The notes under the pieces are model-generated. The model was not told the origin of the DNA. It worked only from the letters and a program-made list of their open reading frames with translations, and searched no databases. DNA of 64,000 nucleotides from Bacteroidota bacterium. GTDB taxonomy: Bacteria > Bacteroidota > Ignavibacteria > UBA10030 > SZUA-254. Position numbers and translations under genes: made by a program. The stretch lies in the NCBI GenBank assembly GCA_049515655.1, contig JBEKTW010000005.1, positions 22,721 to 86,720 on the forward strand. The letters run 5' to 3'. Below, piece by piece: positions 1,995-59,107 of the stretch; position 1 is the stretch's first letter; the number at the start of each line of letters is the position of its first letter.

Positions 1995-3386
1995 TCACAG
2001 AATATATTTGCTCAAATCCCTGTCCTTCACTATCCCGCTGAGCTTTTCCTCAACCATTTCTTTCGTCACCGATATCGATTTCCCCGCGTACTTGTCCGGT
2101 GAGTTAAAAAGGACTTCTTCCAGCACGGTCGTCAATATGGTATGGAGGCGGCGCGCACCGATATTCTCAACCTGCTCGTTGACCTGAGTCGCGATCCGGG
2201 CGACTTCACGAATTCCTTCCGGCGTGAACTCGAGATTCACACCTTCCGTTTCCAACAATGCAACATACTGTTTGATGAGCGCGGCTTGGGGCAGGGTGAG
2301 GATTTTCACAAAATCATCCTCCGACAGGCTGTTGAGCTCGACACGAATCGGGAACCGTCCCTGGAGCTCGGGAATCAGGTCGGACGGCTTCGTATTATGG
2401 AACGCCCCGGAGGCGATGAACAGAATGTGGTCCGTTTTCACCATGCCGTATTTCGTCAGGACGTTTGAACCTTCGACGATCGGCAGAAGGTCGCGCTGAA
2501 CCCCTTCACGGGAGACATCGGGCCCGGCGGATTGGCCCGTGGAACTGGCAATCTTGTCGATCTCGTCGATGAACACGATTCCTGCGTTCTCAACGCGATT
2601 GAGCGCGTCCTTGACCACCGCGTCCATATCGATAAGTTTGTCGGCTTCTTCCTGCGCCAGGACGACGCGCGCTTCGGCAACGCTCATCTTTCGCTTCTTG
2701 GTCCGCTTCGGCAGCATGTTGCCGAAAATCTCCTGGATGTTAATGCCCATCTCCTCAACGCTCAACGGCCCGAGAACCTGCATCGTGGGCATCTGGCTCG
2801 CCGCGATGTCGACCTCAATCGTCCGTTCCTCAAGTTCTCCCGCGCGCAGTTTTTCCCTGAATTTCTCACGCGTCGCATTTGCTTCGTCCGTCTCATTCAC
2901 AATTTCTGCAGTTCCTTCAACGCCCGCGTTCTGACGGCGCCTCAGCGGCGGTATGAGAATATCCAGGATCCGGTCCTCCGCCAACCGCGCGGCTTTGTCC
3001 CGGATCTCCGTGGCTTGCTCGGCCTTCACCATGTTAACCGCAAACTCGGTCAAATCTCTGATCATCGATTCGACGTCTCTTCCGACGTAGCCGACTTCGG
3101 TGAATTTCGAGGCCTCGACTTTGATAAACGGCGCATCGACGAGTCTCGCGAGGCGGCGCGCTATTTCCGTTTTCCCGACGCCCGTCGGACCAATCAGGAT
3201 AATGTTGTTTGGCATGATCTCTTCCCGGAGATTCTCGGACGTCTGCAATCGGCGCCAGCGATTTCGGATCGCGATAGCAACCGATTTCTTGGCGGCTTGC
3301 TGACCGATGATATAGCGGTCAAGCTCCCGCACGATCTCCCGGGGCGTCAATTCGTGCTTAGGTTCTTTTTTTGTCTTTTTGTTCAT
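1995..3386 (-). CDS. hslU: ATP-dependent protease ATPase subunit HslU
   Basis: 463 aa with a Walker A motif [15 protein letters not shown] and an AAA+ ClpX-like layout throughout. It lies downstream of hslV. Confidence 0.95.
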
Positions 3387-3404
3387 TCTAGCAATTTCAA
3401 AGCA

Positions 3405-3723
3405 AGAGCATGGTACTTGGTTCTTGGTTCTTAGTTATTAGTTCTTGGTTATTTGTTATTTGTCATTAGTCACTGGTCATTTGTCATTGGTCATTGGTTC
3501 TTGCTTCTGGCTTCTAGCTTTTAGCTGTTGGCTTTTGGTTCTTAGTTGTCAGTTCGTTGTCATTGTTCATTAATCATTGGTCATTATTCACTACTACATA
3601 GCTACATAACTACTCAACTACCTAACTACTCCATCTCACCGCTTCACCCCATCTCCCCTTCATCATCTTAACTACTTAACTATTCAACCACCTAACCACT
3701 CAACTACCGAACTACCTAACTAC
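3405..3723 (-). repeat. copy 1 of a purine-rich, stop-codon-dense intergenic repeat family that fills the hslV-hslU gap in sense orientation
   Basis: The reverse complement of 3405-3723 aligns with 18293-18633 and partly with 48090-48346. Shared blocks are gtagttaggtagttgagtagttatgtagctatgtagtagtgaataatgaccaatgattaatgaacaa..., ctaagaaccaaaagccaacagctaaa and ggggtgaagcggtgag. The sense strand almost lacks C in one section and T in another. Confidence 0.8.
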
Positions 3724-4272
3724 TCAACTACTTATTTCCAAATCCTCCACCACAATATTCTTGTTCGTATAAATGCAAATCTCGCTCGCTGCCGCCAGTG
3801 ACTCCGCCACAATCTCCTTTGCCGAGAGGTCGGTATGCTTCACCAGCATCCGGGCGGCGGCCAGGGCATAACTGCCTCCCGAACCTATTGCGACAATACC
3901 GTCATCGGGCTCGATGACTTCACCGGTACCGGAGATGATGAGTGCTTGTTCTTTGTTGACGACCGCAAGGAGGGCTTCGAGATGCCGGAGGTATTTATCC
4001 GTGCGCCATGCCTTTGCCAGCTCGACCGCCGCGCGCAGCAGGTTACCGTGGTACTGCTGGAGGCGGTCTTCGAACCGCTCGAACAGCGTAAACGCGTCCG
4101 CAGCGGCGCCGGCAAATCCCGCGAGCACCGAATCGTTGTAGATCTTTCTGATTTTTCTGGCATGCTGCTTCATAATCGTCGTACCGACGGTGACCTGGCC
4201 GTCGCCGCCGATGACGGCATGCCCCTTGTGCCTCAACCCGAGAACGGTCGTTGAACGTATGATATTTGGCAT
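3724..4272 (-). CDS. hslV: ATP-dependent protease subunit HslV
   Basis: 182 aa. The N-terminal [23 protein letters not shown] matches the HslV Ntn-hydrolase signature. Confidence 0.95.
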
Positions 4273-4290
4273 GGATGTGTAAAGTTGTGG

Positions 4291-5745
4291 TTAGAGTTTC
4301 CGCCTGAGTCTGGCGATGGGGATATTCATCGACTCACGGTACTTTGCGACTGTGCGACGGGCGATGTTCAGTCCCTCCTGTCGAAGCCTTTCCGCAATGC
4401 GGTCGTCATTCAACGGATGATTCGGCTCTTCCGTTTCAATGATTCCCCGGATTTTTTTCTTGACTTCTTTGTTCGAAATTTCCTCGCCGCTTGTCGTGCG
4501 AATCGAATCGCTGAAGAAGTGCCGCAGCTCGAAGACACCGTATTCGGTTTGAACATACTTCCCGTTGACGACCCTGCTGATGGTGGAAATATCCATACCG
4601 ATCGTTTCCGCGATATCCTTGTAGATCATCGGTTTCAGATTCTCCCCCGTCTCGAAGAAGTCCCTCTGCCGCTCGACGATCGACCGCATGACCTTCATCA
4701 TCGTTTCGCGCCGCTGGTAGATCGACGCAACAAACCATTTCGCGCGCTCGAATTGCTTGCGGATAAAATCCTTCGTTTCGGCCGACGCGCCGTTGTTCCT
4801 TCGCTTCGACATCATTTCCTTGTACGTCCGGTTAATCCGGAGCGGCGGTACATTCTTGTCGTTCAGCATGATAATGAAATCGGCGCGATCCCTCTCCACG
4901 ATAAAATCCGGTGTGACGTAGTTCTGCTGCGTGATGAATTCCCCTTCCCCCGGTTTGGGATTCAGCTTTTGAATCAGTTCAATCACGATCCTCAGATGGT
5001 CGAGGTCGATGTGCATGATGTTCGCGAGTTCCTGGTAGTGCTTCATCGAGAATTCATTCCAGTACTCACGAATGATCCTGAGAGCAAGGTCTTTGAGGCG
5101 GGGTTCAAACTCACCCACATCAAGCTGCGCGGTGAGACACTCCTGGAGGTTGCGTGCGCCGATTCCGGGCGGATCGAGATGCTGAATCTGCAGGAGGATC
5201 TCCTCGGCTCGCTGCGGATTCACCGAGAGGCCGCTCGACAAACTGAGGTCCTGTACGATCAGCGAAAGGTCCCGCCGGAGATAACCGTCCTCATCGATAT
5301 TGCCGATGACTTCTTCACCCAGGAGCTCCTCGTCGGGACTGAGATTGAGAAGGCGGAGCTGGTCGATGATGCGCTGCGAGAGGGGAATATCGGCGGGCAG
5401 CGGCATGTCGTCCCGGTCTTCATCGACGCGATTCATGTAACCCGTCTTGTATCCCGAGAGGTCATCGTTCATGTAGTCTTCGAACGTATAACCATCGCCA
5501 TCCTTCGTCGCATTCGGGTCATCGGCCACGGCAGACGCGTCCGACGCAACGGCAGCAACCTCCTCCTTCTCGCGCTCCTGCTGGGGCTCCATCTCTTCTT
5601 CTTCTTCCAGCAAGGGGTTCACCTCGAGTTCCTCCTTGATCCGCTGCTCGAGAGCAAGCACCGGCAACTGCAGCAGCTTGAGGTACTGGACCTGCTGCGG
5701 CGTCAGTTTCTGAAGAAGTTGTTGATGTTGAGATAACGTCTGCAT
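4291..5745 (-). CDS. rpoN: RNA polymerase sigma-54 factor RpoN
   Basis: 484 aa. The C-terminus carries the RpoN box ARRTVAKYRE and a helix-turn-helix, and a Gln/Leu-rich N-terminal region is present. Confidence 0.95.
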   Translation of the reverse strand: MQTLSQHQQLLQKLTPQQVQYLKLLQLPVLALEQRIKEELEVNPLLEEEEEMEPQQEREKEEVAAVASDASAVADDPNATKDGDGYTFEDYMNDDLSGYKTGYMNRVDEDRDDMPLPADIPLSQRIIDQLRLLNLSPDEELLGEEVIGNIDEDGYLRRDLSLIVQDLSLSSGLSVNPQRAEEILLQIQHLDPPGIGARNLQECLTAQLDVGEFEPRLKDLALRIIREYWNEFSMKHYQELANIMHIDLDHLRIVIELIQKLNPKPGEGEFITQQNYVTPDFIVERDRADFIIMLNDKNVPPLRINRTYKEMMSKRRNNGASAETKDFIRKQFERAKWFVASIYQRRETMMKVMRSIVERQRDFFETGENLKPMIYKDIAETIGMDISTISRVVNGKYVQTEYGVFELRHFFSDSIRTTSGEEISNKEVKKKIRGIIETEEPNHPLNDDRIAERLRQEGLNIARRTVAKYRESMNIPIARLRRKL

Positions 5746-5758
5746 GAATACCGGGAAC

Positions 5759-6361
5759 CTACTTCAAAAAATTCATGAGAGAAAACTTTTTGTGACTTTG
5801 CCCGTCGTGAAGACGGCATTCCTTCCGAAATTCTTCATACCACGTTTCACCGTACTTGCGAATGAGTGCATTTTTCAGAAAATCATACATCAAAATTCCC
5901 TCGTCCCGGCCGTGTTCGACCGCCGGGGCGCATTGCGCGATTTTTTCATACCGGAGAGTCTTCACGGAACCGCAGGAGATCCTTATCGGGAACAAATGGC
6001 ACGAAATCGGTTTGCGCCACGCGATCACTCCGTCGATATGACCTTTCTCGAGTGAACAACGCGCGATACCGTCTTCGTAGTACACAAAAACACACGCTTT
6101 GTCGTCAACGCAGGTCGTGGTGAAGTTGCCGGGGGTTCCCTCGTACAATCCATGCTGAGCGATGGTTTGAAGATGGTACTCCGAAAGGTGGTTCTTGACA
6201 ACGGGGAATGCCCGTTCAAGTTCTATCAGCTCATCGTCGTCGAGGGGTGCCCCTCGACCGCCCGAAAGCGTACAACAGGCACCTCTGCACTTCACCACAT
6301 CACATGCGAAGCGTTCATGCGCAATTTGTTCGTCTATAAGAGCTTCGCCGATTACAAACAT
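5759..6361 (-). CDS. Cys-rich conserved hypothetical protein (DUF3109-like)
   Basis: 200 aa with conserved cysteines (CRGACC and other Cys/His residues). Size and pattern fit the DUF3109 family as I remember it. It ends 13 nt upstream of the rpoN start on the same strand. Confidence 0.55.
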   Translation of the reverse strand: MFVIGEALIDEQIAHERFACDVVKCRGACCTLSGGRGAPLDDDELIELERAFPVVKNHLSEYHLQTIAQHGLYEGTPGNFTTTCVDDKACVFVYYEDGIARCSLEKGHIDGVIAWRKPISCHLFPIRISCGSVKTLRYEKIAQCAPAVEHGRDEGILMYDFLKNALIRKYGETWYEEFRKECRLHDGQSHKKFSLMNFLK

Positions 6362-6459: not shown

Positions 6460-7623
6460 TCATGATCTGACAAACATCTTTCCCGGCATCTGCTGCACAA
6501 GGCCCTTGAACTCCAGATTTAGAAGATGAACGAGTGCATCCGACGTTGAAAGTTTCGCGGACTCGGCGATGCTGTCGATGTGGCGGGGCTCGTCGGAAAG
6601 CACGTCCCATATGGCTTTTTCGAAGAGTGTCAGATCCGGCGATGGCGCGCTTTCCTGCCTGACGGAATCCTTCACGAGCGGTCTCAATTTGGATGCCAGC
6701 TCCGCGAGTATATCATCGAAGCATTCGACGAGCTTGGCGCGGCCACTCTTGACCAGCGCATGGCACCCCCGGCTCTGTTTCACGCCCACATTGCCCGGAA
6801 CCGCAAACACTTCCCTGTTCTGATCGAGCGCGGTGTTCGCGGTGATCATCGCCCCGCCGTTAACGTCGGTCTCGATGACGAGCGTCCCCAGCGACAGTCC
6901 GCTTATGATGCGATTGCGGCGTGGAAAGTTTCCGGCATCGGGCTTCGTCCCCATTTCATACTCTGAGATCACCGCACCGTGTGCGGCGATCCTCTCGAAG
7001 AGATTCCTGTTTTCCGGCGGATAGGGAACATCCAGTCCGGAACCGATGACAGCGATCGTTCGTCCGCCTGCCTTGAGAGTCGAAGCGTGAACAATGGTGT
7101 CGACGCCTCTCGCGAGTCCGCTCACAACGGGGATGCCGATTTTGCAGAATTCCTGCACGAACTTCCCCGCGATCGTTGTGCCGTAGGGCGTCGGCGAGCG
7201 TGTGCCGACGATCGCGATTGCGAACCGGTCTTGCTCCGCAAAATCTCCCCGCACGAAGAGAAAAGGCGGCGGGTCATAGATCTTTTTCAACAAGTCCGGA
7301 TACTCCTTGTCCCAGAACGTGACAATCCTCCCCCCGGCTTTATTCAGCCGGGAAAGCTGCAGCTCGGCGTAGTTCTTTGCATCCTTATATCCCGAACTTC
7401 CGATGAAATGAACTATCTCCGAGGCCAGTTTCTTGCTGAAACCCTCCACTGCCGCAATCTCCCTCGGGGAAGACTCGACAACGACCGACGGGTCTCCGAA
7501 ATGGGATATGAGCACCCTTAACCGGTTCGGACCGATGTTGGGGATCTGCGATAGAACCAATAGATCAAAAACCGGAAACATGCCTCTCCTCCTCTGCCTC
7601 TCCCGGAGTCTATGCGCCGACAA
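6460..7623 (-). CDS. dprA: DNA processing protein DprA (Smf)
   Basis: 387 aa. It contains the DprA Rossmann-like core FAIAIVGTRSPTPYG...GLARGVDTIVH...GSGLDVPYPPENRNLF. Confidence 0.9.
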   Translation of the reverse strand: MSAHRLRERQRRRGMFPVFDLLVLSQIPNIGPNRLRVLISHFGDPSVVVESSPREIAAVEGFSKKLASEIVHFIGSSGYKDAKNYAELQLSRLNKAGGRIVTFWDKEYPDLLKKIYDPPPFLFVRGDFAEQDRFAIAIVGTRSPTPYGTTIAGKFVQEFCKIGIPVVSGLARGVDTIVHASTLKAGGRTIAVIGSGLDVPYPPENRNLFERIAAHGAVISEYEMGTKPDAGNFPRRNRIISGLSLGTLVIETDVNGGAMITANTALDQNREVFAVPGNVGVKQSRGCHALVKSGRAKLVECFDDILAELASKLRPLVKDSVRQESAPSPDLTLFEKAIWDVLSDEPRHIDSIAESAKLSTSDALVHLLNLEFKGLVQQMPGKMFVRS

Positions 7624-7649
7624 TCGTCATGCGAAACTCCGGTTGTGTG

Positions 7650-7922
7650 TTATCCTTTGACCTCCAATCCGTCCACGACTGCGACAATAACCGTGTGGAC
7701 GGGTATTTTCTTATTCCCCAAAACCTGGACGGCTCCCTGGCCTTCCTGGATCGTGAGCACCGTATCACCGACGCCGGCGTCCACCGAATCGATGGCGAGA
7801 ACATCGCGACCGATGAACTTTCCATCAAGGTCAATCGGTTGAACGATGAGGATCTTCTTGCCTTTCAGATGTTCGTTCTTTTGTGTGGCAACGATCGTAC
7901 CGATGACTTTTCCGAGAGTCAT
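7650..7922 (-). CDS. EutN/CcmL-family (BMC-P) microcompartment vertex protein; an orphan copy
   Basis: 90 aa. The sequence MTLGKVIGTIVATQKNEHLKGKKILIVQ...DSVDAGVGDTVL...VHTVIVAVVDGLEV follows the EutN/CcmL pattern G.VIGTVV.T.K...L.G.KLL.V...D..GAG.G..VL...PVDAVVVG.VD. Confidence 0.6.
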   Translation of the reverse strand: MTLGKVIGTIVATQKNEHLKGKKILIVQPIDLDGKFIGRDVLAIDSVDAGVGDTVLTIQEGQGAVQVLGNKKIPVHTVIVAVVDGLEVKG

Positions 7923-7929
7923 ACTTACT

Positions 7930-9327
7930 TTAGGATGTTTTTATTAGTCTCGTGAATTGTGCTACCAGTTGCCGGGACCGCCGTTTCGACGGCGCCTCGG
8001 CAATAATACGGATGATCGGTTCGGTATTAGATTTGCGCAGGTGAACCCATGAATCGGCAAAGTCGATCTTCAGTCCGTCCCGGACGTTTACCGTTCCCTT
8101 CTTCTCATTCCTGTGCCGGATCCTGTCAAGGAGCCGGTCGACATTCTTTTTGGCGACCATTACCTTCGATTTCGTGATTACATACCGGGGCAAGGTGGCC
8201 TTCAGCTCGGACAGCGTCCCGCCAAATTCACAAAGGTGTTGCAGGATAAGTGCGATGCCGACAATCGCATCTCTCCCGTAGTGCACTGCCGGCAGGATCA
8301 CGCCTCCGCTTCCCTCGCCGCCGACAACCGCACCGACTTCCTTCATTTTCCGGGCAACATTGATCTCACCGACCGGTGTCCGGATCACCCTGGCACCGAA
8401 TTTTCCGGCAACGTCATCAACCGCGCGGGTCGTCGAGAGGTTGACGACGACGGACAGTGAACGCTTCCGGCCATTCCCGGGAAGGCGGATGGATCCTTTG
8501 TGCGCTCGAATGCGCGGGAGGATGAAATCCACGACAGAAGTGACGGTATATTCTTCACCGAATGGTTCTCCCCGTTCCGTTATCAGTACAAGCCGGTCGA
8601 CGTCGGGGTCAACGGCAATGCCGAGGTCGGCGCCCTCCGCCCGGACACGCCGGCAGAGTGCTTTGAGGTTCTCCGGAATCGGTTCGGGAGTGTGGGCGAA
8701 CACACCGCTCACGTCGCAATTCATTTCAATGACGGTGCAGCCAAGCTTCCGCAGCAGTCGGGGAACAATCATCCCGCCCGCTGCATTGACGCAATCGACG
8801 ACAACTTTGAATCCCCGTTCCCGAATTTCGCCCGCGTGCACATACGGCAGTCGTGTAACCATATCGATGTGCCTCCAGATGAAAGTATCATCCGGGGTAT
8901 GCTTTCCCATCTTATTCCACGGGCTGTAGGAGAAATTGCCGCGGTCGGCGATGGCCATGAGCCGTTTGTTCTCTGCGGCGTTGAGGAACATACCGGTTTT
9001 ACCGAGGAACTTCAGCCCGTTCCATTGCACGGGATTGTGACTGGCAGTGATGGAGATTCCCCCGTCGGCATGAAGTTGTTCGACGGCAATCTGGATAGTC
9101 GGGGTCGGCACAACGCCAAGCGCCACCACATCGCATCCCATCGAAAGGAGTGTCGAGGAAACCAGATTTCCAATGACCTTTCCTGAAATTCTCCCATCCC
9201 TTCCGATGACCACGGTCCCCCGATTGCAGTATTGCGCGAAGGCACCGGAATACTTCAGGATGACGTCGGGGGTAAGGCCGTCACCGATGACACCGCGAAC
9301 GCCCGAAATGCTGACCATCAACGACAT
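7930..9327 (-). CDS. glmM: phosphoglucosamine mutase (Bacteroidetes-type GlmM; phosphohexomutase family)
   Basis: 465 aa. N-terminus SISGVRGVIGDGLTPDVILKYSGAFAQY, active-site region TASHNP and the metal loop GIAVDPDVDR are all present. Confidence 0.85.
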   Translation of the reverse strand: MSLMVSISGVRGVIGDGLTPDVILKYSGAFAQYCNRGTVVIGRDGRISGKVIGNLVSSTLLSMGCDVVALGVVPTPTIQIAVEQLHADGGISITASHNPVQWNGLKFLGKTGMFLNAAENKRLMAIADRGNFSYSPWNKMGKHTPDDTFIWRHIDMVTRLPYVHAGEIRERGFKVVVDCVNAAGGMIVPRLLRKLGCTVIEMNCDVSGVFAHTPEPIPENLKALCRRVRAEGADLGIAVDPDVDRLVLITERGEPFGEEYTVTSVVDFILPRIRAHKGSIRLPGNGRKRSLSVVVNLSTTRAVDDVAGKFGARVIRTPVGEINVARKMKEVGAVVGGEGSGGVILPAVHYGRDAIVGIALILQHLCEFGGTLSELKATLPRYVITKSKVMVAKKNVDRLLDRIRHRNEKKGTVNVRDGLKIDFADSWVHLRKSNTEPIIRIIAEAPSKRRSRQLVAQFTRLIKTS

Positions 9328-9702
9328 GACGACGACTTTCGGGAGTAGTGGAGTATTGGATTATTGGAGTGTTGCATATTCTGCCGATAAATGTAGCAAA
9401 GATGGGCATGAGAAGCAAGAAAAGAAGGTAATTTCAGGTAGTGGATCAATTTGGTCTGCCGTTATATCTCAGACCGACATGGCAGGGGAACGACGACATT
9501 ACGTCCCCTCTTGCCGAAGGCATCTCTCGGGACGAGAGGGGACTATAGGGGTGTGTTGATGACCGATCGCATTCTGTGTATGTAAGTGAGAGTGATGTGT
9601 CATCCCCAGTTACCCACCCCGTCGACTTCGTCGACACCCCTCCAAGGAGGGGACTTCCCTTTCCCCGCAGTTCAAAGTGAGTCAGTACCGATTCTTTGGA
9701 TT

Positions 9703-9728
9703 GTTTGAAAATGAATCGGAATTTCCGT
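9703..9728 (+). repeat. left 26-bp direct repeat (att-like) bounding the 9.7-14.9 kb island
   Basis: gtttgaaaatgaatcggaatttccgt occurs exactly here and again at 14836-14861. An exact 26-mer shared by chance in 64 kb is extremely unlikely. Confidence 0.85.
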
Positions 9729-9734
9729 TTGTAG

Positions 9735-9836
9735 TTTTGCCAGAACAAGATAAAAGAATTTATTACGAAGCTGCATATACCGGGAAGTGATCCACGAATC
9801 AAGGAGTTGGAGAAAAAGCTGGGTATCAGTGATTGA
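9735..9836 (+). pseudogene. C-terminal gene remnant (...IKELEKKLGISD*) directly after the left direct repeat
   Basis: A 33-codon open frame with no start codon ends at TGA 9834-9836. Homologous remnants (...FIKELDLEEKDLLKKLGQ*) recur at about 11095-11152 and, truncated, at about 10425-10452. Confidence 0.4.
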
Positions 9837-9863
9837 ATCTGCCGAGATCGTTTCGGTTTTCAC

Positions 9864-9900
9864 AAAGCCGGGCGTTTACAGAGCACCCGGCTTTTTTATT
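9864..9900 (+). terminator. rho-independent terminator-like hairpin with a T-tract; this is cassette repeat a
   Basis: aaagccgggcgtttacagagcacccggcttttttatt has an 8-bp GC stem followed by T6. Related hairpins lie at 10456-10521 and 11181-11210. Confidence 0.6.
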
Positions 9901-9924
9901 GCACATAATTCGTCTGAGACGCCG

Positions 9925-10350
9925 TCAGGTATGAGGAAGATATTTCTTGAGTTCCGCATAGAGTTGTTTTTCGGCTGGCAGGAGGGTCACGTGCGTACTG
10001 CGAGCTATTGCTATGCTTCGGTTCGCTCCAGTTTCCCTCATGTTAACGACACGTATGTAAGACAGAGGCTGCAGAACAGTCTCTAAATCCTCAGTTTTCC
10101 AATGCAGTGCGTCGCATAGTTTTTTCTGTTGTGCTTGCTTGTTTTTGGTAATTTCAAGAGCGTCCATAATACCTGCCTCAAGACATCCTTTGGACGCGGC
10201 GTACTCCAAGAAATCTCGCTCCCGCAAAACCGATGGCTTCCCTTTTTCTACAACTGTAAACGTTGGCGGCTTATCAGATAGTACGGGTTCTGACCGACCG
10301 ACTTCAATTCCCTTCCTCTGCAGACAAATCATGATTTCGCTGAAATTCAT
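9925..10350 (-). CDS. hypothetical protein (island cassette 1)
   Basis: 141 aa ORF in the low-GC island. No family was recognised. Confidence 0.45.
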   Translation of the reverse strand: MNFSEIMICLQRKGIEVGRSEPVLSDKPPTFTVVEKGKPSVLRERDFLEYAASKGCLEAGIMDALEITKNKQAQQKKLCDALHWKTEDLETVLQPLSYIRVVNMRETGANRSIAIARSTHVTLLPAEKQLYAELKKYLPHT

Positions 10351-10424
10351 TTGCGTTCTCCTTTGTCGTTACGAGGTCTTTTCTGATTCGCTCACTATAT
10401 ATTGTGAACTGAATAAACTTACTC

Positions 10425-10530
10425 AAACAAACGGTGAAATTCAAATTCATTAAAAGGCCGGGCCAGTGATTGAATCAAACGAGGGCATTACAGTTAAAAG
10501 CCAGACGTTTTCGGCCCGGCCTTTCATTGC
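10425..10530 (+). repeat. cassette repeat b, a degenerate copy of the gene-remnant plus hairpin unit
   Basis: It carries attcaaattcattaa and cagtgattgaatc, embedded in the ggccgggcc...ggcccggcc hairpin. Confidence 0.6.
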
Positions 10531-10594
10531 GATGTTTCCTGTACTAGGATGGCTTCAACTGAGGGTCATGGTTGATTCTTCCTTAACTGTTTTC

Positions 10595-10837
10595 CTAGGT
10601 GGGGTGCAAGCACGACTGAATCAGATGAGCAAAATCATTACCGCAAGTATGCGCAACTTGCGACTTGAAATGTTTTCCGTCATCATTGAGAGTAATGGTA
10701 GCACAGATATTATCCTTACCATGTCTTTTACAAACAAGCGACGAGATTGCATCATACATCCTCTTGAGCATTGACCCCGGGGGCAATTTGTCCGCGTCAA
10801 CGACTTTGTCACAGTATGTGAGAATAAATTTAATCAT
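10595..10837 (-). CDS. small hypothetical protein (island cassette 2)
   Basis: 80 aa. Its start overlaps the stop of the upstream small membrane ORF by 4 nt (ATGA). Confidence 0.3.
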   Translation of the reverse strand: MIKFILTYCDKVVDADKLPPGSMLKRMYDAISSLVCKRHGKDNICATITLNDDGKHFKSQVAHTCGNDFAHLIQSCLHPT

Positions 10838-11067
10838 AGTGTTCCGCTTTTCTTAGAGAGATATTGTACTACCGAAGTGTATCCGGCACAACACATGAGC
10901 AATGGAAGAAATCCATCGCTAAAAGTTGTAAAGAACCAAGTTGCGATCGGATTAGCTGATACCTTATACACGACTCCCCAAAACCACATCGTGAGAACAT
11001 AAAATATCAAAAAATTTACTGCTTGTGTCGGCTTAGCAGGTGCCCATTTAGTTGGTTCTGCTTGCAC
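10834..11067 (-). CDS. small predicted membrane protein with two hydrophobic helices (island cassette 2)
   Basis: 77 aa with two hydrophobic segments (FLIFYVLTMWFWGVVY and GFLPLLMCCAGY). It is translationally coupled to the 80-aa ORF. Confidence 0.35.
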   Translation of the reverse strand: MQAEPTKWAPAKPTQAVNFLIFYVLTMWFWGVVYKVSANPIATWFFTTFSDGFLPLLMCCAGYTSVVQYLSKKSGTL

Positions 11068-11087
11068 AATATAGCGACAAGGGGTGG

Positions 11088-11213
11088 ATATTCAAATTCA
11101 TCAAGGAGTTGGACTTGGAGGAAAAGGACTTACTTAAGAAGCTGGGGCAGTGATTGAATCAATACGAGGTGGTTTCACGAAGCCGGGGGATTACAGAATG
11201 CTCGGTTTTTTAT
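11088..11213 (+). repeat. cassette repeat c (gene remnant plus hairpin)
   Basis: attcaaattcatcaaggagttgga...aagctggggcagtgattgaatc...gaagccggg...ttacag...ctcggttttttattgc is homologous to unit a at 9790-9900. Confidence 0.65.
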
Positions 11214-11244
11214 TGCGATTATTCTGACTTAGCTAAGGCCAAAA

Positions 11245-11826
11245 TCAAATACGTATCCCTTTTGATTGCACTGCCCCAATGATTGCTTTGATGTCTTCCG
11301 CGCCATAAATCGACGCATCAATTTCACGATTGAATTCTGAAACGAACATGGAGTGCAACACTTTCTCCAGTGTTTCTGTTACGTGATTGAAAAAATCAAC
11401 CTCTATATCTGCATCATACCACACTTCACTGGGATTGAATACGGCTTTCTTATCTATGTGAAAATGAGCCTTGTCTCGCACTCCCTTCAGCTTGTCTGCA
11501 AGAATGTTGATGTCCGCCAGACTCAAACCGTTCTTGACCAGTTCGTCTTCTATGCCTTTCGTGTTGCATTTGTGCAAGTAGAAGAAGGAAGCTACACGTG
11601 TGTGTAAATCCAAAACATTCATTACATGTAAGAACATCGCGTCGTGCAATGCGAAGAATGAGTACGTGAAAATAGACGCGCCCGGTTCGGGAAAGGCCGA
11701 AACATTGGGTGCTATAGTCAGTAACTCAGTAAATGCATTCCTGTAAGAAAGAGCACGACGAAGCTCATAAAGGTTACGAATGAGTGCGCGACTATATGTG
11801 CTAAGTGGCCGGTGTTGGGAAGTCAT
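11245..11826 (-). CDS. hypothetical protein with a HEPN-like R-x4-6-H motif (possible RNase toxin)
   Basis: 193 aa. RDKAHFH lies at about aa 117-123, and the protein is predicted to be helical. No confident family could be assigned. Confidence 0.45.
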   Translation of the reverse strand: MTSQHRPLSTYSRALIRNLYELRRALSYRNAFTELLTIAPNVSAFPEPGASIFTYSFFALHDAMFLHVMNVLDLHTRVASFFYLHKCNTKGIEDELVKNGLSLADINILADKLKGVRDKAHFHIDKKAVFNPSEVWYDADIEVDFFNHVTETLEKVLHSMFVSEFNREIDASIYGAEDIKAIIGAVQSKGIRI

Positions 11827-11894
11827 CTACCTCTCTTGCGAACAAAACAGTTCTTGATTCTATTTCTAATCATTCATTGTCGCCTACCTTCCGT

Positions 11895-12668
11895 TCAAAA
11901 ATCTTCCGCTATGACATCCGCGGTAATGATGCAAGTTTTCAAGATTTCTACGCTTTCATGCCTAGAATCTCTAAAGGTTCTGTCAATAAAATCAATCATT
12001 TCAGGCACTTCGGAATCATCTTTCAGAATGATGTATTTGACATCGTCGGGCGTAAAGCTTAACCTGGATTTGAGAGCTAATTGTTCTTCTGCTGTTTCCC
12101 GCTTGGCCTTGTTTAGAAAGTCCGGCTTGATGAGAAGTCTAAGTTCAGAAGGGATATCATTCGGCACCAGCCTCCACTCCCTTTCGTTGTAGAATCTAAT
12201 GTCTTCTCTGTATGCGTTTTCCCTCCACAATTTCCCCTCATAAGGTTTGACATGACTGACAAATGTGAGTACAGCATCCACTAGTTTGTCTTTCAGCTCC
12301 CTCCTGACTTCCTCCTCTTGCGGATTCGTAGCGTTCAAGTTTTCAAACAAATATTGCAGTTTGGTTTTCTTGTGGACATAGAGAACTGGTGTAACTGAAT
12401 GGTCCATTCCCCACTGTTTGGATAGACCTAATCCGTAGCTCCTATCTCCGTAAAAGTCCAGATGGCTTCTTATTAGGAACAGAGGCAAATCGCAGAAGGA
12501 AATCATAGGAATCGCAAACTCTATCGTTCCATCTTGCCAATTCTCCAAGCAGTAATGTGGTATGAAGCCCTTCGCGAGGATGCCTTTCACCTTGTCAATG
12601 GACGGTGTGAAATGGAAGAGTGTGTTGGAACTTATGTTGACGGACGTCGTTCGGTTGTAGTCTGGCAT
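11895..12668 (-). CDS. AbiGi-like abortive-infection family protein (tentative)
   Basis: 257 aa. N-terminal SNTLFHFTPSIDKVKGILAKGFIPHYCLE. The AbiGi assignment rests only on my memory of that family's N-terminal motif and on the similar size. It is not a checked alignment or database hit and could be wrong. Confidence 0.45.
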   Translation of the reverse strand: MPDYNRTTSVNISSNTLFHFTPSIDKVKGILAKGFIPHYCLENWQDGTIEFAIPMISFCDLPLFLIRSHLDFYGDRSYGLGLSKQWGMDHSVTPVLYVHKKTKLQYLFENLNATNPQEEEVRRELKDKLVDAVLTFVSHVKPYEGKLWRENAYREDIRFYNEREWRLVPNDIPSELRLLIKPDFLNKAKRETAEEQLALKSRLSFTPDDVKYIILKDDSEVPEMIDFIDRTFRDSRHESVEILKTCIITADVIAEDF

Positions 12669-12766
12669 GAAGCACTCACTTCCTCAGTCATTCTTGAATC
12701 GTCACGGCCAGCGAATTTTGTGTGTGCTGGTCGCCCTAAAGTCTGGCCAAAGTCGTCGCTACGTCG

Positions 12767-13690
12767 TTACTTAGTCTCGGTTGCACGATAAGTCTCAATT
12801 AAGAATCGCATAAGTGTGGTTGTCAAGTATATCATGTACTCCAGTTCGGAATCCGAATAGACTCGCTCATCGGCAGGCTCAAAATCGCTGTCGTGCTTAA
12901 CGGCCGTGCTCTGGTACAACGAGAACTGTGTTAGCATAGTAAAATAGTTTTGACGAATCTGAGAGTGAACTCCTTTCTCTTTCATCCATTTGAGCAGCGG
13001 CTCTTTTTGCTTCTCAATCGGAGAATTGTTTCCTAAAACAACCTTCAGAAGGTTCTCAAGTGCAAATCGTAATGAATCTAGGGCTTGGCGGTACATAGAA
13101 GCGTCTTTGGAAACCGCTATGGAGAGTGCTTTGTTATATTCTTTGACGACGTCAGGATATTTTCTGAGCCAAATAGCGTTCTCGTCCACAGCTTCATCAA
13201 GCAGTTTGATACCATCAGGATAGAGCTCCATCTTGCCATCTATGTTCTCAATGCGTCTTATATTTATTCCCGACGAACTTTCGATTGCCGTGTTCAAATT
13301 TGCTATAAGAGATTGAACGGCTGTCTTGAACTCGTCAAGTGTCTCGTAAGAGGCAGATAATTGTTCAAGTGACCAGAAAAGACGCTGCAAGACAAGAATC
13401 AGCTCACTTAGCCCTTGCGCATTTGTAAGATGTTTGATAATACCTTGTCCGATTGCAAGGTATGCTGGGTCCACGTACTCTGAGCCGTTGATTACTGCAA
13501 ACTTTCCCTCAACTGCCGCCACCAGTGACGTAGCTTCAATATCGTATATCATCTCATCAAGGTATTTCAAATCGCTCAGAAAACTACCGACGGCCGTTGA
13601 CACTCTATTACGAAATTCTGAAAATAGCTTCTCTTTTGGGATGACTATTCCCCATCTTTGCATGAAATCATTGGTTGGTGTCTTGCTCAT
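12767..13690 (-). CDS. hypothetical protein, predicted helical, upstream partner of the AbiGi-like gene
   Basis: 307 aa ORF that reads convincingly as coding within the AT-richer island. No family was recognised. Confidence 0.55.
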   Translation of the reverse strand: MSKTPTNDFMQRWGIVIPKEKLFSEFRNRVSTAVGSFLSDLKYLDEMIYDIEATSLVAAVEGKFAVINGSEYVDPAYLAIGQGIIKHLTNAQGLSELILVLQRLFWSLEQLSASYETLDEFKTAVQSLIANLNTAIESSSGINIRRIENIDGKMELYPDGIKLLDEAVDENAIWLRKYPDVVKEYNKALSIAVSKDASMYRQALDSLRFALENLLKVVLGNNSPIEKQKEPLLKWMKEKGVHSQIRQNYFTMLTQFSLYQSTAVKHDSDFEPADERVYSDSELEYMIYLTTTLMRFLIETYRATETK

Positions 13691-13869
13691 GATAAGTCTG
13701 CCGATTCCCGTGCCTTTAATTGTACTTGGCGAATATACAAAAGATTTTGTCCCGTGTCAACAAAGTCTAAATCTATTTTTCTGGCTCGCTCATTGTTTTT
13801 CTTCAATATGAATGAGTAAACTTACCGAAAAAGACAAACATCGTAGCTTTTCGGTGTTATGTGCCGCGA

Positions 13870-14562
13870 TTATTTCTTGTTCAAACCTGTTTGCTGTTTA
13901 ACCGCTGGCGTGTCCGCTTTTATTCTTTCTGGATTTAGCACAAGCACTCTTGTTGTGTCACGAAAAGCGTTCATATTCGTAATGAGCACATCTCTCTGAG
14001 TTTTGTAGGTGACAAATTGGAAAAAACCCATCAAGAGACTTACAACAATTGATACAACAGCAATCCGAAATGTCAATTGTTGGGCTTGTTTTCTATCGGC
14101 CGCCTCTTGTTTTCTGTCCGCGGCGTCTTGAGCAAAGCGCTGTTCATCTAAGGTTAAGAAGCCACGGTCAACAAAATCAGATAACTCTGGTAGAGGGGCG
14201 ACATAAAATCCATCGTAAGACCGGATTATCCCCATGATTTCATGTTCCGCGTCGTTCTGACTAGCAAATATAGGTAAGAGGCGCACGCCCTTACTTGCCC
14301 TGCGTAACCTTGTTACAAGCCCTTCTCGTTCTAATCGTGACCAAAGTGATATGAATTCAGTAAGCTCTGAAATAGTTTTGTCACGATTCTTAGGAATATA
14401 ACCGGTTGTCTTAGGGTCACAAACCAAATCCCATCCAGGATAAGATTGCTGGAGGATGAAACGTTCAAAGTCACCGAACTGCAAGAGAAATTTTTCAGTG
14501 TCAGTTGCTTTGTTTTGCAGCCAGGCTCGTACAATCTCTTGTTGAATACTACTCAGTTTCAT
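13870..14562 (-). CDS. hypothetical protein with a single C-terminal transmembrane helix
   Basis: 230 aa. The C-terminal IAVVSIVVSLLMGFFQFV is hydrophobic and is preceded by a charged Lys/Gln-rich linker (DRKQEAADRKQ). Confidence 0.5.
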   Translation of the reverse strand: MKLSSIQQEIVRAWLQNKATDTEKFLLQFGDFERFILQQSYPGWDLVCDPKTTGYIPKNRDKTISELTEFISLWSRLEREGLVTRLRRASKGVRLLPIFASQNDAEHEIMGIIRSYDGFYVAPLPELSDFVDRGFLTLDEQRFAQDAADRKQEAADRKQAQQLTFRIAVVSIVVSLLMGFFQFVTYKTQRDVLITNMNAFRDTTRVLVLNPERIKADTPAVKQQTGLNKK

Positions 14563-25213: not shown

Positions 25214-28200
25214 ATGGAGGAAACGATGAGAAGAATTTTGTTGGTAGTCTTGACGGCAGCAACACTTGCCAGCGCTCAACAGCGCGTGCTTGTATCCTCG
25301 AACAACGAAGTCGTTCCCTTGAAGAACGGTGAAGGTGCACTCGAAGCCGTAAAACGATATACCCAACACAAGAAGTTATTTCACACCTCTCAGACCGGAT
25401 GCAGTGATACATCGTCATACGGCTTCTCTCCCAATAATTATCCGCCGATGGATTTATTATATGCCTATCACAAAGACATGTTGGCGGAATGGCTGATTGC
25501 CCCGGCGGACGGCATTATCGATTCAGTATATCTTCTCACGGGTTCTCCAGTTCCCCACGATTCCACATTGTACTTGCGAATAATGGAGTCTCGCATCTAT
25601 CCTGGAAGCGGACCGGGCTACGGCGAGTTCGCGCCAAATTTGCCCGGGGCGTGCAATGATTCAGTCGGACCTTGGGGATGCGACTTTTGCCCCCTCCCCT
25701 GGGGATACTTCACGAACACCAATGACCTGGATGGTCAGGAGAACAACCCACCAACGTGGGGTATCGGTGGAGTAGCTGCGTTCGTGGAGGATGCAACCCC
25801 TCCAGATTCAACGGCGTGGGTCTCAACCTTGCAAAGATCCTATCCGCATGCGCCGGTAACGTTTCCTCCAACGGTTGATGAAATCTGGGGAATTGGAGGA
25901 CATTCCGTCCGTATCAGGCCAAATAGCGTGAACGTCTTTAACTTGCATTCCCTTGGCGCACCCTCGCTGCACACAGGCCAGCCACTCATGATTGTACTTG
26001 AGATAAGGGGCTATTGCAATGAATGGTTGGATGATTGTGAGAATGATCCATATCGAACAGGTGTTGCAGCTAATGCTGCCTCTTTCGATTCGCACGTACA
26101 CTACCATACGCACTTTTGGAAGTTCTATGAGCACGGTCTCGCCTGTGGATTTCCGGGCTGGACGGACCGCGGGAGTTATGAACTTCTTCTTTGGTATTCG
26201 ATGACATTGACAGGCAATGTACCTCCACGAATTGTCGACATGACCACATTGCCAGCGACTCTGGGAGCGAAGGCACAGACGTTCGCCGCTGATATCGAAG
26301 ACTGCAATATTGCAGATCCTGCCAGTGCCGGTGTTGTGTCGGCAAGCCTTAGCTACTCTGTCGATAACGGACCTTACACAACCGTCCCTATGACTAATCA
26401 GGGCGGAATAACATGGCAAGCAACGATCCCACCGGTTCCTCCGACTAATGGTCGCCCTTATTCCCGGACAGTGAACTATTTCATCTCGGCAGCAGATTCT
26501 CAAGGGCTAACGATGGATACCATTTATCATAATTACAAAGTCCTGTCGTTCGGCGATGAATGGTATTATCCCGACACCACGATTGCATACAATCCGGTTG
26601 TCGTCAAAGGTAACGGCGGCATTGAAATAGATCCTTCGATCTTCTTCGAGCCGCCGTATCCTGGCGCCGGGACACATCCCAAAGACGACGGCACCGCGGG
26701 TCCGTTTGACCTCGGCGGACAGTTCATCTACTTCGGCGACACAGTGCGATACGCCTGGGTCGGCGTGAACGGCGGCATCGCACTTTCACGTTCACCAACA
26801 GACACGATCGACGTCAATGCAAATGGATCGTTCTCCAGTGGAATTCCATGGAATATCCCTTCTCCACAGCATAAAGGCCGCGCAGATATTGCCGGCGCAA
26901 CGAATAGTCCAAGAAATTTCATCGCACCGGACTGGCAGGACTTCATCCTGGCAGATTCAGCGCGACAGTACGGTCATATCTTATATCGGACAGATAGCTG
27001 CCGGTTCATTGTCGAATATGACTCGATAGGAATCGGGGGAATTACGCCCGCGGCGAGCAACACTACGTTCCGGGTGATTCTCAACCGATGCGACGGAACG
27101 ATCGAATTCCAGTACGACAGTGTCGGAGCATTCAATGCAAATTCCATGTGTGTGGTTGGACTCCAAGGCGATTCCCTCCTGGGACATAATCCCGGTTATC
27201 TACTGCTTTCCCGTTGGGCGTTTGCCGATTTCGGTCCAGTTGAATGGACTCCACGCAACAATCGCTCAGTGCGTTTGTATCCCACAGTTGGCGCGGCGGT
27301 AGCAGGCGGATGGAATTTGGTGTCCGTGCCGGTGATTCCCCCCGGAAATGACTACGACGTATCCTTTCTCTTCCCGGGAGCGATCTTATATCCATTCAGG
27401 TACTATGGCGGATACAAACGAGACAGCATACTTTCAAACGGCGTAGGATATTGGATGAAGTTCAGCAGAGGCAACGTCCTTGCAATGCCCGGACGCCTGC
27501 TGTACGCATTCGATGATAGTGTGAAGGTGGACTGGAACATGATCGGAGCGATCGGGAAATCTGTTGCGACGGGCGCTGTGGTTCAGGATCCGGCGAACCT
27601 TGTATCGTCTAATTACTTCGGTTACAACCACGGGTACTTTATCGCGACATCAATCGACCCGGGCAAGGGATATTGGGTGAAATCACGGGGGACGGGTGTG
27701 CTGCACCTGACAGCCAGCTCGATACCGAAGTCGTCTTCGGCACTTGCAGATCTGACGGTGCTCAACAGGATCACGGTGACCGACGCGGAAAAGAACCAGC
27801 AGCCGTTGTACGTTGGCAGTGAGAGCGACCTGAAGGTGCCGGCAAGCATGTATGAGATGCCTCCGGTAGCGCCGGGAGGGATATTCGATGTACGGTTCGC
27901 GTCGCAGCGGATGGTAGAGACGTATCCGGACAAGCTACAAGGCGGGAAAGTTTATGAGTTCCCGATCAGTATTCAGACGAATGCGTATCCTGTGACGGTT
28001 CAGTGGCAGATACAGAACACGAACGGTCGGACGCTGACGTTGACGGACGGGCTCAGCGGACGGATTGTGAACAACGCGGCGTTGACGAACAGCGGATCGA
28101 TCAAGATAATGAACCCGAGCGTGAAGTCGTTGGTGCTGAAGCTGGTGGAAGGCCGAACGGTGCCGAAAGAGTTCGCATTGAGTCAGAACTATCCTAATCC

Positions 28201-32022: not shown

Positions 32023-32913
32023 ATGCAGCCAGAAGAAGTCGAAAAACTCGTCCAATCGATCCTCCATGAACAAGGGGCCGGACACTCATGCTGCGCCGAT
32101 GGGAAATGCACCGATGGGCTATGCGTCATCCACAACAAGGAAGGCGTCAAGAACATCGTCCATAACGGAGCATCGCGAGTCTCGGCGGGCATTGGAATTG
32201 AGGCGGCGGGCGGAGTCGAGACGGATCTTGCCCGGATGATCGACCATACCTTGCTGAAACCTGAAGGCACAAAGGACCAAATCATCCAGCTTTGCAACGA
32301 AGCGAAGAAATACAATTTTGCGAGTGTCTGCATCAACCCGTGTTATGTCTCGCTGTGCGCAAAACTTCTCCGGGACACCTCCGTAAAAGTGTGTACGGTC
32401 ATTGGCTTCCCGCTCGGCGCGACCTCGACCGCAACGAAGGCATTTGAAGCGGAACAAGCCCTTCGCGACGGCGCGAAGGAGATTGATATGGTCATCAACA
32501 TCGGCATGCTCAAGTCGCGCGAATACGAATATGTTGAGAACGATATTTTTGCAGTCGTGACGACAGGGCGCCGCTACGGGGCGTTATCCAAGGTCATTCT
32601 CGAAACGGCACTTCTGACCGACGAAGAAAAGGTTAAAGGCTGCATCCTGGCAAAGCGTGCAGGCGCGGATTTTGTCAAGACGTCTACGGGATTTTCCAAG
32701 GGCGGGGCGACGGTGGGCGACATCGCTCTCATGCGGAGGGTTGTCGGAACTTCGATGGGCGTGAAAGCGTCCGGCGGCGTCCGCACGCGTGAGGATGCCC
32801 TCGCGATGGTTGCGAGCGGTGCCGACCGCATCGGCGCAAGCGCCAGCGTCAAGATCGTTGTCGGGAACGGGGACGAGAAAAAGCAGGAACATTCCGCGAC
32901 TCGCGCAAACTAA
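32023..32913 (+). CDS. deoC: deoxyribose-phosphate aldolase (DeoC) with an N-terminal extension
   Basis: The DeoC core MIDHTLLKP...VCINPCYV...GFPLGA...K...VKASGGVR is present. The start is taken as the ATG at 32023 because the ORF-track start at 31999 is a TTG. The first roughly 40 aa, [34 protein letters not shown], are additional. Confidence 0.85.
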
Positions 32914-45297: not shown

Positions 45298-45305
45298 AAC
45301 CTCCT

Positions 45306-45872
45306 ATGCCTTCGATTCGCACATTTATCGCCATTGAAACACCCGGACCGATTCGGAAGGACATCCTCAGTCTCCAGGATCGGCTTAAGCGGTCGGGCGC
45401 GGATGTCCGCTGGGAACCTGAAGACAAATTCCACGCGACGGTAAAATTCTTGGGGGATGTCGATGAAACCGCTTTGCCAGGCATTCTCACGAAAATCGAG
45501 ACAGTTGTCGTCCAGCATCGCGCGTGTGAAGTTATTTTTGAGAAGCTGGGATGCTTTCCAGACAATAAGCGCCCGCGCGTGGTGTGGGTCGGATGCTCGA
45601 ATCCCGACGGCAAACTCGAAGCACTCAAGTCAATGCTGGACAACGAGTTGCGAGTATTCGGCTTTGAGATCGAGTCACGTCCATTCCGGCCGCATATCAC
45701 TCTGGGTCGCATCAAGAGCCAAAATGGAATTGAACACTTGATTTCAATACTAGAAAACCTTACCTTTGAACCGCACGCCTCGGTCGTGAACAAGATTTTC
45801 GTCATGAAGAGCATGCTGAAACCCAAAGGGTCGGAGTACTCCGTCCTGCAAACAATTCAATTAAACCGTTAG
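45306..45872 (+). CDS. thpR: RNA 2',3'-cyclic phosphodiesterase (2H phosphoesterase family, LigT/ThpR)
   Basis: Two H-x-T/S-x motifs are present (HATVKFLG and HITLGRI). Confidence 0.8.
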   Translation: MPSIRTFIAIETPGPIRKDILSLQDRLKRSGADVRWEPEDKFHATVKFLGDVDETALPGILTKIETVVVQHRACEVIFEKLGCFPDNKRPRVVWVGCSNPDGKLEALKSMLDNELRVFGFEIESRPFRPHITLGRIKSQNGIEHLISILENLTFEPHASVVNKIFVMKSMLKPKGSEYSVLQTIQLNR

Positions 45873-45885
45873 TTAGGATATTTCC

Positions 45886-46290: not shown

Positions 46291-46306
46291 TAAGGGAGGT
46301 AACGTT

Positions 46307-47392: not shown

Positions 47393-47411
47393 CCGCCACC
47401 GTGCCGCTCTC

Positions 47412-49027: not shown

Positions 49028-49039
49028 ATAGCCCATCGT

Positions 49040-49140: not shown

Positions 49141-49172
49141 TTTTAATTATCGCATGCCATTACCGGATTGTT

Positions 49173-59050: not shown

Positions 59051-59107
59051 ATCCGGTTCCGGTCTTTTCTTGTTCAACTCCACACAATTCCCTATATTCA
59101 GTCTGCC

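Follow-up and report, generated by a model that had tools for sequence, protein, structure and literature searches.

We analyzed a 64,000-nucleotide stretch of DNA (the window) from a Bacteroidota bacterium of the class Ignavibacteria (contig JBEKTW010000005.1 of assembly GCA_049515655.1) and found that the open reading frame (ORF) at 7650-7922, between glmM and dprA, encodes a genuine and functional BMC-P, the pentamer-type shell protein of bacterial microcompartments (BMCs). Our results suggest that this gene is one fragment of a FRAG1-type microcompartment whose genes are dispersed around the chromosome, with the deoxyribose-phosphate aldolase DeoC encoded at 32 kb as its likely cargo and a function like that of the sugar phosphate utilization (SPU) metabolosomes, a reading to which we give a probability of roughly 0.7. 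The evidence comes from the family and fold of the protein, purifying selection on its gene, conserved synteny, local isolation from other shell genes, an N-terminal extension on DeoC and the residence of the relatives of this DeoC in SPU loci. A first-pass annotation of the window had presented the gene as an orphan. Its local isolation held, while the idea of a singular oddity did not, as the arrangement is a conserved and already catalogued trait of the lineage.

Identity and fold of the shell protein

The first-pass annotation had recognized the BMC-P pattern in the 90-aa protein, and profile searches bore this out. The match to PF03319 (EutN_CcmL) reached 87 bits (E 1.2e-24) against a gathering cutoff of 25 and runs from end to end, with residues 1-84 of the protein on positions 1-83 of the 83-position profile. 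None of the NCBIfam equivalog models reached its cutoff (CcmL 67 vs 125, EutN 41 vs 118 and CsoS4 29 vs 120) and therefore the window BMC-P belongs to no named subtype; judged by these scores it is neither a carboxysome nor a Eut vertex protein. Sequence matches among PDB entries were all BMC-P, headed by CcmL of Nostoc (4N8X, 57 bits) and the Haliangium shell pentamer (5V74, 53 bits).

This was further supported by structure prediction, a check that the annotation had proposed. The AlphaFold2 (AF2) monomer model, for which 32 orthologs were used, reached a mean pLDDT of 83, and a Foldseek search of the PDB with this model returned 46 matches at E<=1e-3, every one of them a BMC-P. The best of these (CcmL, GrpN, EutN and the HO-shell pentamer) superimpose with TM scores of 0.8-0.88 and a root mean square deviation of 1.3-2.0 Å. 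From the modelled fold we would expect the protein to form pentamers.

With the solved BMC-P pentamers (CcmL 4N8X and 2QW7, HO-shell 5V74, GrpN 4I7A and EutN 2HD3) the window protein has in common the fold, a sequence identity of 33-43%, the N-terminal (V/I)xGT(V/I)V motif and the acidic-ended interface loop xAGxG(D/E). This loop, of the GAGxGE type, reads DAGVGD at residues 48-53, and D48, A49, G50 and D53 are invariant across 32 aligned orthologs, an alignment with 36 invariant columns. In other shells the acidic last residue of such a loop makes a salt bridge to an arginine of BMC-H (PMC13370225). Antisense to the BMC-P gene lies a 108-aa ORF (7629-7955, plus strand), a shadow of the conserved gene on the minus strand and no gene in itself.

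Conservation and genomic setting

One genome per GTDB species was scanned and a relative of the protein was found in 327 species; the locus statistics refer to the best 80 of these 327, which come from metagenome-assembled genomes (MAGs) labelled Ignavibacteria, Kryptonia, Bacteroidota, Chlorobiaceae or Chitinophagales. Databases hold more than 1,100 homologous proteins. The best 120 of them are 89-95 aa long and 76-99% identical to the window protein, and those that are named come from Ignavibacteria, Bacteroidota or Chlorobiaceae MAGs. Many JGI records label these PF03319 proteins "microcompartment protein CcmK/EutM", which is a BMC-H name. This naming is an annotation error and could mislead keyword-based censuses of shell genes.

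The gene directly 3' of BMC-P is dprA in all 80 loci, at a median gap of 50 nt (more than 500 nt in only 3), and glmM is seen upstream in 76. Since unrelated genes lie between glmM and BMC-P in 28 of these 76 loci, the tight unit is BMC-P plus dprA. The glmM/BMC-P junction is an insertion hotspot, where tetratricopeptide repeat lipoprotein-like, glycoside hydrolase-like, methyltransferase and phosphoglycerate-mutase-like genes were found (loci with insertions include L019, L024, L026, L033, L043, L053, L056, L064 and L070-L073), while the BMC-P/dprA junction is intact. Downstream, the order DUF3109-rpoN-hslV-hslU continues in most of the 80 loci.

The median identity of BMC-P to the window copy is 72.7%, which is at the level of HslV (75.8%) and HslU (72.2%), with glmM, dprA and rpoN at 59-62%, and the divergence of BMC-P correlates with that of its neighbours (Spearman rho 0.58-0.72). 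Against the closest relative (L003, CAVSHI01), in which the protein is 97% identical, the ratio of nonsynonymous to synonymous substitution rates (dN/dS) is 0.047, and the median over 163 pairs with unsaturated synonymous sites is 0.17. The gene is therefore functional, vertically inherited and strongly constrained, as judged from dN/dS, HslVU-level conservation and a divergence that tracks that of its neighbours. BMC-P is a resident of the housekeeping block (glmM)-BMC-P-dprA-DUF3109-rpoN-hslVU and is inherited vertically in the lineage.

In the window the end of glmM and the start of BMC-P are 7 nt apart, as first annotated. The 26 nt originally given between BMC-P and dprA hold only for the longest dprA ORF, with a TTG start at 7623. 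Translation of dprA probably begins at the ATG at 7581, which is preceded by the ribosome-binding site GGAGGAG and agrees with a 373-aa dprA call on a JGI contig, and from which the gap is 68 nt. No terminator-like hairpin was found between glmM, BMC-P and dprA, and a scan for sigma-70 promoters and terminators gave nothing above shuffle expectation. The Bacteroidota-type promoter (TAnnTTTG) was present upstream of BMC-P in 3 of 81 loci, which is about the background rate and thus uninformative. Probably, BMC-P is co-transcribed with the surrounding housekeeping genes instead of being expressed from a substrate-induced BMC operon.

Local isolation from other shell genes

The first annotation had seen no BMC-H or BMC-T shell genes in the window, and both Pfam scans and a six-frame search came out the same way. 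Pfam scans of the 45 window proteins identified hslUV, rpoN, DUF3109, dprA, glmM, an AbiGi island, AMMECR1, a prolyl-tRNA-synthetase-like protein, two cargo proteins of the type IX secretion system (T9SS), DeoC, SPOR, mltG (YceG), tsaD, an ABC exporter, pgsA/pgpA, cinA, recA, recX and others. PF00936 and PF06130 were absent from these proteins, and so were the SPU enzymes of the RpiB type (PF02502) and the acylating aldehyde dehydrogenase (AldDh, PF00171).

For the six-frame scan of ORFs, a BMC-P hidden Markov model (HMM) was made from E. coli EutN and Synechocystis CcmL, and a BMC-H HMM from PduA (PDB-checked), CcmK2, EutM and CsoS1A. In the 64-kb window the scan gave exactly one BMC-P and no BMC-H or BMC-T. 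The negative is meaningful because the same BMC-H HMM detects genuine BMC-H genes in 24 loci of a metagenome scan for DeoC (see below), one of which was verified as PF00936 by Pfam. A tblastn search of the window with PduA, CcmK2, EutM, CsoS1A, EutN and CcmL was discarded, as it missed the true BMC-P, which blastp scores at 46-54 bits. Negative results of tblastn at default settings are untrustworthy for short shell proteins, as a 54-bit BMC-P match that is easy for blastp and HMMER was missed.

The isolation continues beyond the window. On overlapping contigs (including Ga0427939_0000572 and Ga0427939_0001750) there are no BMC genes in the ~7 kb and ~8.7 kb past the window ends, and the six-frame scan found neither a second BMC-P nor any BMC-H/T inside ±10 kb at any of 82 loci. 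The BMC-P gene is locally an orphan within the window and its flanks.

Agreement with the FRAG1 pattern

In FRAG BMCs the shell genes are found in up to six genomic places, mostly far from known enzymes (Sutter et al. 2021, Nat Commun 12:3809, Supplementary Data 2). [quoted passage not shown] Melioribacter roseus has 7 BMC-P, 5 BMC-H and 1 BMC-T spread over five loci, four being satellites (Axen et al. 2014, PMC4207490). These two catalogues were the only literature on BMCs of Ignavibacteria that we found.

Our loci have this pattern. As in FRAG1, where shell genes are remote from one another and from BMC enzymes, the gene is the sole shell gene in the window and over ±10 kb in the 82 loci, and the record titles of the best 80 loci (L003-L082) fall in the taxonomic range of FRAG1. 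As the taxa are the same, the simplest reading is that the gene is one FRAG1 satellite, a standalone BMC-P gene remote from shell genes and known BMC enzymes like those in the catalogue. The gene thus belongs to an already catalogued lineage pattern and is not a mystery orphan, and its position at dprA and the DeoC on the same contig are the added detail. The catalogue gives no gene context, whereas here the position (glmM)-BMC-P-dprA is fixed, with conservation at the level of HslVU and vertical inheritance. Locus tags and isolate names of the orthologs (AUI33, E6K56, IALB, A3G43, BY39, Kryptonium and others) had no match in the available part of the catalogue trees, which show representatives only. 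The clusters of 10 orthologs gave a few MBI/HUL accessions, none of them linked to a catalogue entry.

[quoted passage not shown] These are BMC-H genes with a clear main locus elsewhere, whereas here a BMC-P is placed in a housekeeping operon context and no main locus is known.

DeoC as candidate cargo

The N-terminus of DeoC at 32 kb had been pointed out earlier as BMC-flavoured, and this observation proved well founded, as the protein carries an extension of ~70 residues ahead of its aldolase domain, with a conserved helix that resembles an encapsulation peptide (EP). The extension is retained in more than 100 orthologs of 74-100% identity and consists of the amphipathic helix xEIERLVxSILSEQ, a variable linker and the invariant segment CCxDGxCxDGLCVxHNKEGVxNIV. 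It is the pattern of the helix that is conserved across orthologs, with a variable sequence. The mean hydrophobic moment of the helix is 0.72 (23 orthologs), and in 20 of these 23 the observed value is attained by less than 5% of shuffled sequences. In the AF2 model of DeoC, residues 3-15 are helical and lead into a linker of low confidence; the mean pLDDT is 61 and that of the extension is below 50, and only the helix was used. The helix is similar to the EP of PduP (ELETLIRTILSEQL). No other window protein has a terminal helix motif of this kind, save for a weak RecX match inside a domain.

In the Cys segment, which has no Pfam match, C23, C24, C29, C34 and H37 are invariant in 24 DeoC orthologs, and SPU-type DeoC proteins from other phyla have a related C-x-C...C segment. 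Judged from this sequence pattern, the Cys/His motif may bind a metal or have a redox role in a BMC cargo enzyme.

DeoC and the BMC-P ortholog are found on at least 10 distinct common contigs, matched by identical size (28,902; 133,020; 140,187; 136,642; 402,891; 614,979 bp and others). There is no DeoC within 10 kb of BMC-P in the best 80 loci, and in the window the two genes are 24 kb apart. DeoC has a conserved housekeeping context of its own, DeoC-SPOR-Big_5-mltG-tsaD. Small ORFs adjoining DeoC in related loci were considered as BMC parts and rejected, being mutually unrelated (antitoxin-like, truncated deaminase). Immediately upstream of DeoC in the window are two tandem genes for proteins of ~1,080-1,090 aa (25214-28453 and 28610-31882), in which the only recognized domain is a C-terminal Por_Secre_tail (T9SS sorting).

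Relatives of DeoC were sought in 1.84 billion cluster representatives, and one such protein was then used for the metagenome scan, which returned 80 loci. The nearest DeoC proteins outside the clade (45-64% identity) have the same build, with an N-terminal "..ITREVL.." helix, a linker, the Cys motif and the aldolase domain. Many SPU-type DeoC (430-500 aa; P0247, P0248, P0251, P0254, P0256 and P0258) have an insert of ~150-200 residues without Pfam match between the EP-like helix and the Cys motif. An N-terminal RpiB fusion was seen only in P0260, and the insert of the other SPU-type DeoC is not RpiB.

A BMC-P gene is present in 36 of the 80 metagenome DeoC loci, usually directly after DeoC, and a BMC-H gene in 24. 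In one of them (L104) the order is RpiB(EP)-DeoC(EP)-BMC-P-AldDh(C-terminal EP)-BMC-H-EutJ-like-x-x-BMC-P-BMC-P, which corresponds to the catalogue's description of a SPU6-type locus. The loci split cleanly by identity to the window DeoC, with no shell genes near those that are at least 68% identical and shell genes near those of 53-64%. Neither dprA nor glmM was found near any of the SPU loci. N-terminal EPs are reported for DeoC of SPU3, SPU4 and SPU6; furthermore, DeoC adjoins a BMC-P in FRAG3, both SPU enzymes occur in FRAG5 and an EP-bearing DeoC is encoded distally in some HO genomes (Sutter 2021). For FRAG1 the catalogue draws no link to DeoC (Sutter 2021).

The system of the window and the SPU metabolosomes (SPU6/SPU3) thus have in common the signature enzyme DeoC (PF01791) with an N-terminal EP-like helix. 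The nearest relatives of the window DeoC outside its clade (53-64%) are in loci of the order RpiB-DeoC-BMC-P-AldDh-BMC-H...BMC-P-BMC-P, and the sister of the window BMC-P is the last member of the SPU triplet, also of 90 aa. The difference is that a main locus is missing; DeoC and BMC-P lie apart, each among housekeeping genes, and RpiB, AldDh and BMC-H are absent from the window. The presence of the nearest DeoC relatives inside complete SPU loci suggests a dispersed SPU-like organelle.

Placement among BMC-P clades

From the BMC-P triplets of SPU loci we made three type HMMs, namely type i (canonical GSSAR...PVD, DeoC-adjacent), type ii (EGxGAR) and type iii (REAA). The window protein and the 31 aligned orthologs all (32/32) scored best on type ii (88-106 bits), followed by type i (78-90) and type iii (58-72), while HO-5814, CcmL and EutN clearly favour type i. 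A neighbour-joining (NJ) tree recovers the Ignavibacteria proteins as a monophyletic clade, with type ii as its sister group in 75 of 100 bootstraps, compared with 9 of 100 for type i. By this typing the window BMC-P is probably a member of one of the two accessory "BMC-P triplet" clades and not of the canonical vertex clade. It groups with the EGxGAR-type member of the accessory triplet proteins (grey and orange clades, Sutter 2021), which normally occur together in one locus, in contrast to the window BMC-P, which is alone beside dprA. Because of this grouping its exact place in a shell is uncertain, and the role of the extra triplet paralogs is an acknowledged open question (Sutter 2021).

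It is also possible, if doubtful, that the protein is the canonical vertex protein of FRAG1 from the green clade (a viridian3 equivalent) and not an accessory triplet paralog. In the available part of the catalogue's BMC-P tree, HO and SPU3 BMC-P share the green sub-clade viridian3 with a 90-aa Ignavibacteria FRAG1 (sat) protein (Sutter 2021). The VDAGVGD motif is common to the window protein and the DeoC-adjacent type-i BMC-P of SPU loci, and the type-i scores are just 3-22 bits under those of type ii. These points are to be set against the preference for type ii in all 32 orthologs, the opposite preference of HO-5814, CcmL and EutN, and the bootstraps. We had equated the 90-aa viridian3 entry with this ortholog and withdrew this, given that the typing prefers type ii and that the green FRAG1 entries span 88-99 aa, so that a shared size of 90 aa is not diagnostic.

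Alternative explanations

If the window gene is a FRAG1 fragment, BMC-P pentamers would dock into a shell of BMC-H and BMC-T proteins encoded elsewhere in the genome, and this shell would enclose the EP-tagged DeoC as a minimum. Such an organelle would act like a SPU metabolosome and confine the acetaldehyde released from deoxyribose-5-phosphate, with BMC-P expressed together with its housekeeping neighbours and no dedicated inducible operon.

Several observations weigh against this interpretation. The motifs G-S-S/A-A-R and P-x-D, found in all 5 solved BMC-P sequences that we aligned, are replaced in the window BMC-P by G-Q-G-A-[A/V] and P-V-H, so that Ala/Val at residue 65 stands for the Arg of GSSAR and the invariant H76 for the Asp of PVD. 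Both motifs are also present in EutN, CcmL of Synechocystis 6803 and PduN; they are typical of BMC-P, not formally defining. Likewise, the first residue of the interface motif is Asp and not the canonical Gly. FRAG1 is catalogued as "shell protein only", with no enzymes identified and negative EP-HMM searches of FRAG genomes (Sutter 2021), whereas here the same contigs carry a SPU-type DeoC with an EP-like tag. Our EP call on this DeoC is built on the pattern, the predicted helix and homology to SPU DeoC and not on a validated EP model. Ignavibacterium album is listed with 2 BMC-H and 0 BMC-P (Axen 2014, PMC4207490) and therefore the gene is not universal in the class. The co-occurrence of BMC-H/BMC-T with the ortholog in one genome is presumed from the catalogue together with matching taxonomy, and AldDh and RpiB would likewise be encoded elsewhere in this genome. 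The type-ii placement is moderate, with 75% bootstrap in a small NJ tree.

The first-pass annotation had offered two explanations, a satellite locus or a role outside microcompartments. The former agrees with the FRAG1 pattern; the latter found little positive support, the interface loop with its invariant acidic residue and the EP-tagged DeoC both speaking against it. In such a role BMC-P would have been recruited as, for example, a free pentamer that takes part in DNA processing together with DprA or in the supply of envelope precursors together with GlmM, and it would no longer cap a shell. The embedding among housekeeping genes in 80 of 80 loci, with the closest tie to dprA, would fit this, as would a core-like vertical inheritance at HslVU conservation, which is unusual for BMC genes, the lack of shell genes within 10 kb at any locus and the replaced GSSAR and PVD. 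We consider it quite unlikely, as the shell-interface motif ends in an invariant acidic residue and the constraint is strong over the whole surface, as expected of a protein with many structural partners, and the EP-tagged SPU-type DeoC is on the same contigs. In addition, the catalogue has BMC-H, BMC-T and further BMC-P in genomes of exactly these taxa, and the sister group of type-ii triplet members resides inside ordinary SPU loci. We know of no non-BMC function for any PF03319 protein.

Two further explanations are far less probable. The assembly is metagenomic and on one side of the gene the window reaches just 7.6 kb, which leaves room for an ordinary BMC locus with its remainder just outside the window, an outcome that the annotation had itself named as one that would make the locus ordinary. 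This is very improbable given the lack of BMC genes past both window ends and of BMC-H/T or a second BMC-P at ±10 kb in 80 related species. The least probable explanation is that the gene is a functionless, decaying remnant of a lost BMC locus, as its isolation from all other shell genes and the changes in some canonical motifs could indicate. The reading frame is intact at 88-95 aa across more than 1,100 database homologs and 327 species, and synonymous sites are saturated while the protein is at least 62% identical, with dN/dS of 0.05-0.17. These selection data refute decay.

Other features of the window

Table 1. Positions of the BMC-P gene, its neighbours and the DeoC features in the window
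Feature	Position	Strand	Basis
BMC-P (EutN/CcmL-fold) shell protein gene, 90 aa	7650..7922	-	PF03319, AF2 and Foldseek, ATG start
glmM, archaeal-type phosphoglucosamine mutase, upstream neighbour	7930..9327	-	TIGR03990 518.5 bits (cutoff 439), four PGM_PMM domains
dprA, downstream neighbour	6460..7623 (longest ORF)	-	PF02481, DprA_WH, HHH_5; TIGR00732 247 bits (cutoff 191)
DUF3109 - rpoN - hslV - hslU housekeeping block, downstream	1995..6361	-	Pfam
SPU-type deoxyribose-phosphate aldolase DeoC with N-terminal extension, candidate cargo	32023..32913	+	PF01791 over residues 80-280 only
EP-like amphipathic helix of DeoC, residues 3-16	32029..32070	+	AF2, hydrophobic moment
Cys/His motif CCxDGxCxDGLCVxHN, DeoC residues 23-38	32089..32136	+	ortholog alignment

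Between glmM and AMMECR1 there is a variable island (9446-14562) with AbiGi (11895-12668, PADLOC 156 bits), the candidate defence protein PDC-S32 (12767-13690) and five ORFs without family match; it resembles a small anti-phage defence island that was inserted among the housekeeping genes of the block. The contig that carries dprA also has a cluster with a flavour of DNA repair and competence (44056-50000), comprising cinA, a ligT-like 2'-5' RNA ligase, a response regulator, recA, recX, a PolB-exo-like exonuclease and an RNase_T-WYL exonuclease. A glycogen/alpha-glucan cluster (54930-63988) encodes a 1,207-aa alpha-amylase-family protein, a GH77 amylomaltase and a CBM48 pullulanase-like protein, with glycogen synthase and glgC past the window end, and is interrupted by a DUF559 endonuclease-like ORF (54930-55217).

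Implications

Taken together, our results indicate that the fragments of this microcompartment are not scattered at random, since BMC-P has a fixed place beside dprA in all of the best 80 loci. The fixed, vertically inherited position and the conservation at the level of HslVU point to a long-standing organelle that is expressed with housekeeping genes, unlike a mobile catabolic module. The SPU-type DeoC with an EP-like tag on the same contigs offers a concrete and testable cargo and function for FRAG1, which the catalogue left without an enzyme.

A wider proposal is that in Ignavibacteria and Kryptonia the microcompartment is no accessory, inducible operon spread by horizontal transfer, and that FRAG1 is a vertically inherited organelle wired piecewise into housekeeping operons, a dispersed SPU-type metabolosome for deoxyribose phosphate with an accessory BMC-P co-expressed with DprA. 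We regard this as speculative and, in its entirety, unlikely. If true, co-expression with DprA would couple the processing of incoming DNA to the breakdown of the DNA sugar ("DNA as food"). In a weaker form, the triplet paralog may have a role distinct from the plain capping of vertices. The probable triplet identity of the window protein means that a cultivable carrier such as Melioribacter roseus could reveal what the extra BMC-P paralogs do.

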